DNA from: a virus
Length of the DNA: 15,752 bases
IMG/VR virus record: IMGVR_UViG_3300032156_000932
Reading direction: 5' to 3' (one strand)
Part shown: piece after piece, positions 12,248 through 14,673 of the stretch
Layout: every line of letters starts with the position of its first letter
Position numbering within the stretch: the first letter of the stretch is position 1
Position numbers and translations under genes: made by a program
Notes under the pieces: generated by a model
Seen by the model: the letters and a program-made list of their open reading frames with translations, nothing else
What the model was told of the DNA's origin: nothing
The model's database searches: none

Positions 12248-12598
12248 CTAGCTCAGTCTTTCAAGAAGACCAGTGATCGTCGCTCGCAGGTCTCTCAGAT
12301 CGGCATTAAAATCGTCTAAGCGTAGGTAGAACGGTATCATGGGTTCATCACCCCCTATCCGCTCCTCCAGGAAGTGCTCGACTCCCATGGTCGCCTCATA
12401 GATCGTCGACACTTCGTCACTCGGCATCTCCGAAGGAAGTAGCTGGAGCGCCCTCTCCAGAGCCTCCTTGTAGAGCGCCGCTTGCTGAGCGTCGTTTTCT
12501 CCGAATGCACTGAACGGAATATGCGGGGTATCCTGCGCCTTGACCGTCTTCGCGATCCTCGCCAGCCCCTCGTCCGAAACGCCTCTGTGCATCTTCAT
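12248..12598 (-). CDS. Hypothetical 116-aa protein, a paralogue of a module repeated inside the 690-aa protein
   Basis: N-terminus MKMHRGVSDEGLARIAKTVKAQ matches ...MYKGVSDEGLERIARVFKAQ inside the 690-aa ORF. About 58 nt are 80% identical between 12541..12598 and 13101..13158. The start lies 2 nt after the upstream TGA. Confidence 0.6.
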   Translation of the reverse strand: MKMHRGVSDEGLARIAKTVKAQDTPHIPFSAFGENDAQQAALYKEALERALQLLPSEMPSDEVSTIYEATMGVEHFLEERIGGDEPMIPFYLRLDDFNADLRDLRATITGLLERLS

Positions 12599-12600
12599 GA

Positions 12601-14673
12601 TCAGACCCCATCCTCTTCTTCGTTGTCGAATTCGTAGCTCTCCATGATGAAGTTTTTCAAGCGGTCCGTTTCATCGACCGAAACGTACCCCTCCATGTAG
12701 GGCATCTTCAGCCCGTGGTCCGGATGGCTATCGCTCCAGCGAACGCCGGTACCCATCACCTGCATCGCCAGGTAGTGACCGAAGTCACTGCGGTCGAAGT
12801 AGTCGTCTTCGCTCTGTCCCGGGGGTAGGAAGGTAGCAAGATCGATCCCGTTCGCCTGCTCGATGGCGTCGTACATCTTCTGAGCCACCTGGTAGGCTTC
12901 GGGCTCTGTCGGCGGGGCGAGGTCCATCAGCTCAGCTCCTTGGAAATTGGGAACTTCGATGTCAGCCGCGGCACCTGCCTCTTGGAGGAACTTGCGGTCG
13001 TAGTCTTGGAAGAGATTCTCCCACTCGTTCGCCCAGCTGCTCACGAAGACCGCTCGGGCCATTGCGTCCAGGATCTCGTTTCCGGTACCGGCAGACTGCG
13101 CCTTGAAGACTCTCGCGATCCTCTCCAGACCCTCGTCCGAAACTCCCTTGTACATCCCTGCCTCCCGTGCGCCAGCTCTCTGCTTCGGCTGGGTGTAGTC
13201 CTCGGCCCCGTGAGCGAGCGCCAGCTCCGCGCCGGCCTGGTCGACCGGGTAGGCATACCCGTCGAGAGGCACGAGCGCGAGCCCGCCGCGGTACTTCACC
13301 AGGCGGGCGTCCTCGTTCTCCGCCATTCGAATGATGGCGTCGTCCTGGGTGCTCATCTGAGACTCGACTTGACGACTTCCCCGCCCTGTGGCACTACTGG
13401 ACCAGATGCCAGCGGGACGGCTTCGAGATCCCGACCAGTCGAACTTCTCCAACCTCTTCTGAACCGCAGAGCGGGGGGCTCCCTTCGTTCGGAAGGGGCC
13501 CCAGACATAATCATTCCAATTGAATTTTTCTAAGCCTTGCTGCTCCGGCGTGGGGGACATCTCCTCCATCTCGTCGGGGTTCAGCTCCTCCTCGTCCGAG
13601 GGGAGCTGTGGAGCTGCCTGGGCTCTGCGTCGAGCACCCCTTCCGGACATCTCCTCCTCGGAGAAGCCCTCGAACCCGGGCGGAAGACGCGGTGCTGGAG
13701 TACCCAGGGGGAGCCTCTGTCGCAGAGGATCCGGGTTCTTCTCCCTGCCGTAGCCTTCGAAGCTGGCGGGTTCCTTGCTCGGCTCCTCTTCGGTCTCTTC
13801 GTACTCGTGCTCACCGGTATCTTCGTTCACCCAGTGACCATTGCCCATGTCGACCCACTGCGCCCTGCGCCGGCCACCCTTGAAGGGGAGCGAGGTCTGC
13901 CGCGGATCGACGGGGTTGGGCCCCGTAGCGAAGCCCTCCGCGAGAGGATCGGGCTCTTCGTAGTCCTCGTCACCCGGCTCGGGTGGAGGCATCTGCGGGA
14001 CGATGACCTCCTCGATCCACTCGTCGATGATGCTGTCATCCGGGTAGTACCCGTGATCATCGTCGGACTGCATGTCGTTGGGGTCATTGTCCTTCGCCCA
14101 GTCCATGAAGTTGGCCGCGGCGGTGTCCGAGTCCATCACCTCTTCCCAGTGCTCCTGGACACGCTCGTTGGGGTAGCTGTTCAGGCGGCTCGGAACGGCG
14201 TACTTGCAGTTCTCGACAGCAGCCTCGAACTCCATATCGCTGAGCCTGCTCTCGTCGAGGAGAGGGTAGTTCTCCAGCTGGAGCTGGATCTCGGCCCACG
14301 CCTTGAACGCCGGGGTGAGGGTACCGTCGGGCTCGTACACACGGATCGAGTAGCCGTCCACATGACCGACAGCCCAGTGCCCGTGGCTCTCCGCCACGAC
14401 CTGGTCCTCGGGAAACTGGCCCATGATCTCCTCGATGGCCGCAGCGTTCGCCTGCTCGGTGAGCCCCGAGTCCCTGTTCGAGGTGTAGACGATGGTCCAG
14501 TTCTCCGGGTTCTCCTCGGGCTGGCTGCCCCACCCGAACGACTCGAACTTCTGCCAGTTGCCGACGAGCTTCTCAGCGAGATCCTGAGCGTACTCGTCCT
14601 CCATCAAGGCAGTCTTCTTCAGAACGCTCCCAGCGATCCTGCCGTACCCATCGTCCACAATGCCCTTGCGCAT
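12601..14673 (-). CDS. Large 690-aa acidic protein with a low-complexity central repeat region, function unknown
   Basis: Long ORF with GC3-rich codons. The N-terminus MRKGIVDDGYGRIAGSVLKK belongs to the same motif family. The centre is rich in D, E and P and carries short repeats: FKGGRRRAQW / GRGARRRAQA, and LEKFNWNDY / LEKFDWSGS. An RBS-like GGAGG followed by an ATG inside the ORF at about 13159 suggests a nested or fused second module. Confidence 0.7.
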   Translation of the reverse strand: MRKGIVDDGYGRIAGSVLKKTALMEDEYAQDLAEKLVGNWQKFESFGWGSQPEENPENWTIVYTSNRDSGLTEQANAAAIEEIMGQFPEDQVVAESHGHWAVGHVDGYSIRVYEPDGTLTPAFKAWAEIQLQLENYPLLDESRLSDMEFEAAVENCKYAVPSRLNSYPNERVQEHWEEVMDSDTAAANFMDWAKDNDPNDMQSDDDHGYYPDDSIIDEWIEEVIVPQMPPPEPGDEDYEEPDPLAEGFATGPNPVDPRQTSLPFKGGRRRAQWVDMGNGHWVNEDTGEHEYEETEEEPSKEPASFEGYGREKNPDPLRQRLPLGTPAPRLPPGFEGFSEEEMSGRGARRRAQAAPQLPSDEEELNPDEMEEMSPTPEQQGLEKFNWNDYVWGPFRTKGAPRSAVQKRLEKFDWSGSRSRPAGIWSSSATGRGSRQVESQMSTQDDAIIRMAENEDARLVKYRGGLALVPLDGYAYPVDQAGAELALAHGAEDYTQPKQRAGAREAGMYKGVSDEGLERIARVFKAQSAGTGNEILDAMARAVFVSSWANEWENLFQDYDRKFLQEAGAAADIEVPNFQGAELMDLAPPTEPEAYQVAQKMYDAIEQANGIDLATFLPPGQSEDDYFDRSDFGHYLAMQVMGTGVRWSDSHPDHGLKMPYMEGYVSVDETDRLKNFIMESYEFDNEEEDGV

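Follow-up and report, generated by a model that had tools for sequence, protein, structure and literature searches.

Two adjacent open reading frames (ORFs) of 690 and 116 amino acids (aa), located on the minus strand of a 15,752-nt viral DNA sequence (IMG/VR record IMGVR_UViG_3300032156_000932; the whole stretch is referred to as the window) at positions 12601-14673 and 12248-12598, respectively, appear to belong to an array of leader-tagged, recombination-shuffled accessory genes found in a group of large uncultivated phages. Our preferred explanation, which we consider probable, is that this is a hypervariable "leader-cassette" array, in which the leader acts as a portable tag, its DNA as a recombination patch, and the 690-aa ORF is made of fused cassettes. 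Region 12248-14673 would then comprise three units of the array, carried by an uncultivated phage of ~200 kb. Each unit encodes a basic N-terminal leader of ~20 aa followed by an acidic module unrelated to the other modules, and the ~60-nt leader-coding stretches would be portable patches of homology at which cassettes are exchanged through homologous recombination. The 690-aa ORF corresponds to cassettes 1 and 2 fused in frame, and the 116-aa gene to cassette 3. The leader may be an address or docking tag common to all units, by which a varying complement of modules is directed to a single partner or destination. Accessory, host-interaction or anti-defence functions are probable for the modules. 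The layout of the region is as follows.

14614-14673, minus strand: leader copy 1 (MRKGIVDDGYGRIAGSVLKK), codons 1-20 of the 690-aa ORF
13969-14613, minus strand: module A, about aa 21-235
13354-13968, minus strand: acidic Pro-rich linker, aa 236-440, with two insertion/deletion segments
13156-13353, minus strand: "mid" domain, aa 441-506, conserved (...ARLVKYRGGLALVPLDGYAYPVD...AHGAEDYTQPKQ)
13096-13155, minus strand: leader copy 2 (MYKGVSDEGLERIARVFKAQ), codons 507-526; internal start candidate and left breakpoint of the B/B′ exchange
12601-13095, minus strand: module B, aa 527-690 plus stop codon
12592-12533, minus strand: leader copy 3 (MHRGVSDEGLARIAKTVKAQ), in the 116-aa gene, after MK
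12248-12598, minus strand: 116-aa gene (cassette 3), consisting of MK, leader copy 3 and module C

The leader (~20 aa) has the consensus M-x-[KR]-G-[IV]-x-D-x-G-Φ-x-R-[ILV]-A and often ends in ..AQ. A six-frame scan of the window with the pattern G[VIL]xD[ED]GxxR[IVL]A revealed three matches, all within the two ORFs; these are the three sites at which an earlier note on this DNA had reported a shared N-terminal motif. Its placement of the motif at the very start of the 116-aa gene needs one adjustment: the motif is present there, but the gene begins with MKM and the register of the motif runs from the second Met (12592). A repeat search identified a single three-member family of 61-nt direct repeats at positions 12533-12593, 13096-13156 (80% identity) and 14614-14674 (62%), the first two of which correspond to the ~58-nt, 80% identical repeat described previously. 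Leader copies 2 and 3 are identical at 48/60 nt in register (P ~1e-17; 3e-11 such pairs expected in the interval), and an identical codon is used at 11 of their 13 shared residues, compared to 6.4 expected (P = 0.004). Copy 1, whose start codon overlaps the stop codon of the preceding gene (TGATG), matches copies 2 and 3 at 35-37/60 nt, a similarity that is borderline as DNA and clear as protein.

The modules that follow the leaders are unrelated to each other. Comparison of nine modules of the window and related loci (A-mid, B, B′, C, C′, C′′, X, D and E) by blastp showed no significant pairwise similarity past the first 20 residues (best E = 0.23). The units had previously been termed "tandem paralogous modules"; the word "paralogous" holds for the leader alone, and paralogy of the modules was rejected as contradicted by the absence of similarity past the leader. 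It is thus very hard to sustain the idea of ordinary tandem duplication, according to which the three units are diverged paralogues with only the N-terminus still recognizable. The units are indeed arranged in tandem, in the same orientation and with a common N-terminal motif, but module A and module B belong to separate large families of leaderless homologues, and the alleles found at one position of the array show no relationship to one another. With pI values of 8-10 the leaders are basic, while the modules are strongly acidic (pI 4.1-4.7).

An exhaustive HMMER search with the 690-aa ORF yielded ~1400 representative matching proteins (E ≤ 0.001). Most of the best 150 of these matches cover the module A region and are stand-alone proteins of ~200 aa; the module A homologues are almost all devoid of the leader and start at the "...AGNW" helix (e.g. 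gp70 of Streptomyces phage phiCAM). Judged by homology, module A represents a widespread family of mostly stand-alone, uncharacterised phage proteins of ~200 aa, and it is also found within the larger proteins P0106 and P0152 (P and L numbers denote related proteins and loci). Stand-alone forms of module B include ORF063 of Pseudomonas phage Ppu-503 (153 aa) and P0042 (185 aa), the latter with a leader-like N-terminus. Module B is furthermore present, at differing positions, in at least eight larger proteins, including P0030, P0031, P0032, P0036, P0058, P0076 and P0129, and in P0036 the order of the two modules is reversed (B-A).

Structure prediction with AlphaFold2 gave a confident model of module A (pLDDT 85.7), in which residues 1-20 have pLDDT < 50; the leader is therefore predicted not to be packed against the module A domain. 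Among viral models, the module A model had structural matches only to uncharacterised proteins. The model of the mid domain with module B (pLDDT 50) was too poor to use. Searches of Pfam, NCBIfam and PHROGs with the ORFs and 27 related proteins gave only sub-threshold matches or matches of unknown function, and the PDB sequence search gave no match. A possible YscE-like (type III secretion system) identity was rejected, since the match was weak (E = 0.02) and did not reach the cut-off.

The distribution of the leader was examined by scanning IMG/VR with a degenerate leader DNA pattern and re-screening the matches with a hidden Markov model. This analysis placed the same leader at the start of no fewer than 25 small proteins, unrelated to one another and mostly acidic, from at least five lineages of large phages, and showed that most of these leader-led genes have good Shine-Dalgarno (SD) sites. 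In one 26.5-kb IMG/VR contig (L029/L033) the leader is located at the N-terminus of seven genes, and a 192-kb contig (L035) carries four leader-led genes in tandem (MKLQGIPDSGLRRIAQ...). Leader-led genes were also identified in L026 (188 kb) and L038 (147 kb), one of them fused to DUF7249. Literature searches for a leader of this kind in jumbo phages gave no relevant description. Since the genes of large uncultivated phages are mostly uncharacterised, the shared leader may be of use in grouping dozens of small proteins as a single functional class; it leads one to expect that they have a partner or destination in common, and offers a simple experimental handle.

When IMG/VR was scanned with a strict form of the motif, the matches were the window's own relative and four other sequences, three of which look like chance matches. 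One match was located in L013 (IMGVR_UViG_3300045284_000214, a 65-kb contig), where GVNDEGLERIA occurs internally, at ~8760 on the plus strand, in a virion-like protein of more than 900 aa ("...PGAREFLGVNDEGLERIASAQKS..."). It resembles the leader together with the "GARE" that precedes the internal copy in the window, and may be either a chance match or a distant relative.

Alignment of 15 leader copies showed that G4, D7, G9 and R12 are invariant, with conservative changes elsewhere (I/V, K/R, L/F/Y). The third codon position is the most variable (0.50 differences per site, compared to 0.28-0.31 at positions 1 and 2), and in the L022 leader the residues are retained while the codons for D, G, L, R and A differ. 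The preservation of the amino acids despite synonymous change indicates that the leader is selected as a peptide. This speaks directly against the alternative that the 61-nt repeat is kept for an RNA or DNA function (initiation region, regulatory hairpin or recombinase site), with the peptide as a by-product. Such an element could account for the excess of identical codons in copies 2 and 3 noted above, and for the start of the orphan cassette, where 38-71 nt are 100% identical although the genomes compared show only 77-94% identity elsewhere. However, the excess codon identity is accounted for by recent exchange, and the repeat stops short of the region upstream of the ATG. No stable or shared RNA fold was predicted (z-scores -0.5, -0.5 and +1.3), no Rfam match was obtained in the interval, and no promoter or terminator pattern was detected at the repeats; a structured RNA, an Rfam family and a promoter or terminator were all rejected on this basis. 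We therefore regard a nucleic-acid element as very improbable.

Evidence for cassette exchange came from a mosaic map, constructed by blastn comparison of the window with its relatives. L015 is 94% identical to the window over 14924-13094, up to and including the last base of leader 2, after which the sequences are unrelated (B versus B′); 100% identity returns at 12602-12565, i.e. over the ribosome-binding site and the first half of leader 3. L001 has the same left breakpoint (13094) and is 100% identical over 12602-12563, followed by C′ in place of C, and homology resumes at 12233, in the promoter region of the transfer-messenger RNA (tmRNA) gene. In L009, where homology likewise ends at 13094, the 100% identical segment spans 12601-12531 and is followed by the unrelated C′′ (P0011). 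L003 is collinear with the window through module B (95.6%), with the whole of cassette 3 cleanly absent. In total, unrelated B′ replaces module B in L001, L015, L009 and P0004, while the alleles of module C are C′ (L001 and L022) and C′′ (L009). Further leader-led cassettes are X (157 aa, upstream of A in L001) and D (85-89 aa, in L007, L020 and L022). Cassette E of L020 (5481-5948, plus strand; 155 aa) begins with a leader-like sequence (MAISFQGLRRIVSIF), contains an HExxH motif (HERAH), and may be a small zincin-like peptidase within a cassette array.

The breakpoints thus coincide with both ends of the leader-coding repeats and, together with the excess codon identity between leaders 2 and 3, they suggest that leader-coding DNA is the crossover site for cassette exchange. 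The locus would provide a concrete route for the swapping and fusion of accessory genes, namely recombination within a peptide-coding repeat. A comparable role has been described for PeSLs, intergenic elements combining a promoter and a stem-loop terminator, which shuffle cassettes (PMC2839356). Both are short, dispersed direct repeats at gene boundaries acting as crossover points for the insertion, deletion and replacement of non-essential genes among closely related phages. In contrast to PeSLs, the leader repeat is coding and kept as a peptide, and contains no promoter, terminator or stable hairpin (z -0.5 to +1.3).

Polymorphic toxins (CdiA-CT, Rhs) have a conserved junction preceding variable C-terminal modules. 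Spare modules that also carry the junction are located downstream, and the module that is expressed can be exchanged by recombination at this junction. The B/B′ and C/C′/C′′ alleles that follow identical leaders are reminiscent of their orphan arrays. However, polymorphic toxins are paired with immunity genes, whereas the leader cassettes abut each other or the tmRNA gene with no small genes between them, and no secretion or delivery domain, as in polymorphic toxins, was found in the domain search. In addition, the toxin spares are silent, while the downstream leader cassettes have their own start codons and SD sites, and are therefore likely to be expressed genes rather than silent spares.

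The composite nature of the 690-aa ORF is apparent from a comparison with L022. The homologous first gene of this locus (P0013; 323 aa, present on 11 contigs) stops directly after "...EDRTQPKQKSVAASKEDE", and a separate leader-led gene starts 6 nt downstream. At the same point in the window, reading continues ("...TQPKQRAGAREAG-MYKGVSDEG...") into the internal leader. Genes containing only the leader and module A (P0012 and P0028) or only the leader and module B (P0042) were also identified. The L022 stop before the internal leader and these stand-alone genes support the conclusion that the 690-aa ORF is a true fusion of cassette 1 (leader, A, linker and mid) with cassette 2 (leader and B), as judged from sequence comparison. 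The earlier note had proposed a fusion of two genes and suggested looking for the modules as separate genes in relatives. Such genes exist (L022; P0042; P0028 and P0012), so that the homologues are not always a single fused ORF, and B occurs in the eight or more other architectures mentioned above.

The fused ORF was found in six independent assemblies from different samples and is therefore not an assembly error; the fused form persists down to ~40% identity (P0005 and P0006). In a second lineage, module B is a separate gene in L039 and is fused to an upstream protein family in P0058 and P0129, which suggests that fusion and fission of B recur. The locus of the window is itself a case of fusion and fission, one that ties module A to module B functionally.

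The internal leader of the 690-aa ORF is preceded by a putative translation signal:

13161-13166, minus strand: GGGAGG, an SD-like hexamer 5 nt upstream of the internal ATG, encoded by conserved Arg-Glu codons

The claim that an SD sequence lies 5 nt before an internal ATG in the same frame was thus borne out (GGGAGG at 13166-13161). The ATG itself is located at 13155-13153 (codon 507) rather than at ~13159, and a nested product comprising the leader and module B would be of 184 aa, not 199 aa as had been calculated. According to the fusion model, this ATG and its SD would be the former start of cassette 2, which may still yield a separate 184-aa leader-B protein; production of this protein by internal initiation is possible. 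A rival proposal is that of programmed internal initiation, in which the fusion protein and the nested leader-B product are both expressed from one ORF and this dual expression is the function of the arrangement. It is compatible with the cassette model, and the locus would then resemble other in-frame nested phage genes, which have an in-frame start codon and a ribosome-binding site inside a longer ORF, both of them found at codon 507.

Several observations are in line with this proposal. The internal ATG is the sole in-frame ATG or GTG of the ORF with an SD core of at least 5 nt, and its duplex with the anti-SD (-10.3 kcal/mol) is stronger than those at 19 of the 22 putative gene starts of the window (median -6.3). 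The ATG and SD are retained in the window, L001, L003 and L015, and L007 has a GTG with GAGG three codons upstream; a stand-alone leader-B gene (P0042) also exists. However, the internal Met is replaced by Thr in L007/P0005 and by Ile in P0004, the entire internal leader is absent from P0006, which keeps module B, and no promoter-like site was found upstream of the internal start. Since the SD overlaps conserved Arg-Glu codons, it is not independent evidence of internal initiation, and the conservation of the ATG carries little information because the four sequences that keep it are at least 87% identical in this stretch. Programmed initiation at codon 507 therefore appears rather doubtful, though worth considering.

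A further possibility is that the leader, or a basic ...(K/R)xAQ tail, marks a processing junction of a polyvalent protein, i.e. a cleavage or recognition site from which effectors are freed after delivery. Polyvalent proteins (PMC5512222) and the 690-aa ORF are alike in that unrelated modules are joined and reused in varied architectures and orders; the ORF differs in having only two to three modules, and a repeated leader at module starts has not been described for that class. Internal leaders are retained in fused ORFs even when the Met is lost (P0004 and P0005). The leaders end in KAQ, two other indel boundaries coincide with GxRRRAQ-coding stretches, and in the distant fusions P0036, P0058 and P0129 module B likewise follows a basic-AQ sequence, although this pattern is short. 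Processing by a zincin-like peptidase is a proposed polyvalent-protein theme (PMC5512222), and one member of the L020 array contains an HExxH motif. On the other hand, most leaders are located at the true N-termini of single-module proteins, with nothing upstream to cleave off, and the array of the window encodes no peptidase. Moreover, neither a Pfam peptidase nor any other domain known from polyvalent proteins was detected: the catalogued domains (zincin peptidase, ArdC-N, methylase-helicase, LPDs and others) gave no significant Pfam or NCBIfam match in the ORF or in 10 multidomain relatives. A processing junction is accordingly an unlikely explanation.

The closest precedent for a portable N-terminal tag is the capsid-targeting sequence (CTS) of phage T4, a propeptide of 10-20 residues at the N-terminus of internal proteins IPI-III and Alt (PMC3012670, PMC5694885). 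Similarly, ejection-protein paralogues of giant phages have N-termini in common: in gp53 and gp54 of phage SPN3US the first 15 aa are identical, while the proteins as a whole are 34% identical (PMC5694885). A prohead-protease motif follows the peptide, L/I-x-E in T4 and S/A/G-x-E in phiKZ-like phages. The T4 CTS and the leader are alike in being short, conserved N-terminal peptides on otherwise diverse proteins from a variable genome region. The CTS proteins of T4 are non-essential and have only the peptide in common, and the leader is found in variable arrays at the start of at least 25 modules that are unrelated to each other. By analogy with the CTS, we infer that the leader is an address or docking tag. 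If it were a packaging or loading signal, the T4 capsid-targeting principle would be extended to a new phage group, with a possible protein-loading tool as a result. The two systems differ in that the leader modules are strongly acidic and that one leader is internal to a fused ORF; we know of no sequence resemblance between the leader and the T4 CTS.

A more specific version of the tag model, in which the leader is a cargo-loading peptide delivering effectors to a container built by the phage, either the capsid (for co-injection with DNA) or a vault-like shell made of a major vault protein (MVP) homologue, is speculative and has a low probability. An MVP gene is located 0.9 kb downstream of the array in the window, as well as near the leader arrays of L003, L007 and the distant L026 (49% identity). 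However, no MVP gene was found within the fetched flanks of the L001 and L022 arrays, which makes the vault-cargo idea improbable. If cargo loading were true, the array would amount to a payload system with plug-in modules, and foreign proteins could be loaded by means of the leader.

Several points weigh against the leader-cassette model as a whole. Recombination is deduced from the mosaics and was not observed directly; a conserved segment flanked by non-homologous DNA would look similar, so the coincidence of the breakpoints with the leaders is in part what one would expect by construction. L003 did not lose cassette 3 through a leader-to-leader event, and P0006 has lost the internal leader yet kept module B, which indicates that the leader is dispensable in the fused state. 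With regard to the CTS analogy, the motif [ASG]-x-E (usually AQE) is present at leader positions 19-21 in only ~7 of 23 copies, and all three copies of the window lack it (these have AQS, AQD or none). CTS proteins travel inside the head and leave it together with the DNA; for the leader proteins, a place in the virion and a common binding partner are hypothetical. Finally, the searches of Pfam, NCBIfam, PHROGs and PDB, by sequence and by fold, were uninformative on the function of the modules.

The genomic setting of the array is that of a large phage. The closest relatives of the locus are two metagenomic contigs of 205.6 kb and 212 kb, both of which are also in IMG/VR, as IMGVR_UViG_3300036761_001580 and IMGVR_UViG_3300031952_000001; the source of the window is therefore an uncultivated large phage of ~200 kb with ~60% G+C. 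No near-identical DNA was found among GenBank phages, and a metagenome scan with protein alignment yielded only five loci of the close family, which is therefore rare. Every real gene of the window is encoded on the minus strand. They include genes for tmRNA and tRNA-Pro, Tad2-like, DnaJ-like, GDSL lipase and metallophosphatase proteins, and a 900-aa MVP homologue. The features surrounding the array are listed below.

14673-15566, minus strand: upstream 297-aa gene (context only)
12229-12201, minus strand: tmRNA promoter, near-consensus TTGACA-17-TATATA
11795-12160, minus strand: tmRNA gene (ARAGORN; Rfam 96.8 bits), immediately following the cassette array; predicted tag ADADVIPFPKMAVPSLQRAA
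11459-11533, minus strand: tRNA-Pro gene
8652-11354, minus strand: 900-aa homologue of the eukaryotic MVP (MVP_shoulder, E = 1e-29, plus Vault_3 and Vault_2)

In all relatives, the variable array is anchored on its right-hand side by the conserved tmRNA region. On the opposite side, homologues of the 297-aa gene (200-209 aa in the relatives) are always located immediately 5′ of the first leader gene. The version in the window contains an in-frame insertion of ~84 aa found in this sequence only, at about 14924-15193 (minus strand), with a Cys-rich stretch (CKVCGATIVNRCRC...). For the MVP homologue, the best matches in GenBank are proteins of the "uncultured phage" genomes LR756500, LR756501 and LR756503 (462-735 kb; 42-44% identity). 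Phage MVPs have already been reported (bioRxiv 10.1101/2023.11.10.566534). The window also encodes a protein with a Tad2-like (Thoeris anti-defence 2) domain (6949-7419, minus strand; E = 2e-19), which fits an accessory or anti-defence neighbourhood. In the 212-kb relative L001, serine-recombinase (resolvase) and IS605 OrfB/TnpB-like genes (4719-8323, plus strand) are located 2-5 kb upstream of the array, and TnpB-like genes also flank the module A gene of L023.

Sequence analysis of the linker of the 690-aa ORF revealed additional variable segments. Two 21-nt direct repeats on the minus strand, at 13858-13878 (encoding GGRRRAQ) and 13618-13638 (GARRRAQ), bound an 80-aa segment (WVDMGNGHWVNEDTGE...) that is missing from L001 and P0004 and represents a second repeat-bounded indel inside this ORF. 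A 41-aa in-frame insertion (13359-13483, minus strand), present only in the window and L015, duplicates an LEKF(N/D)W segment. The motif (V/I)NEDTGE is common to the linker insertion (~13810-13830, minus strand), cassette X of L001 (9513-9986) and the distant module B protein P0031. At 13507-13533 (minus strand), the ORF contains a 27-nt patch (TTA GAA AAA TTC AAT TGG AAT GAT TAT), for which no promoter match was obtained. Its eight synonymous sites are all A/T in the window, L003 and L015, while the same peptide is encoded with G/C-ending codons in L001, L007 and L020. Such a patch is odd in DNA of ~62% G+C, and could be an embedded signal or an imported segment.

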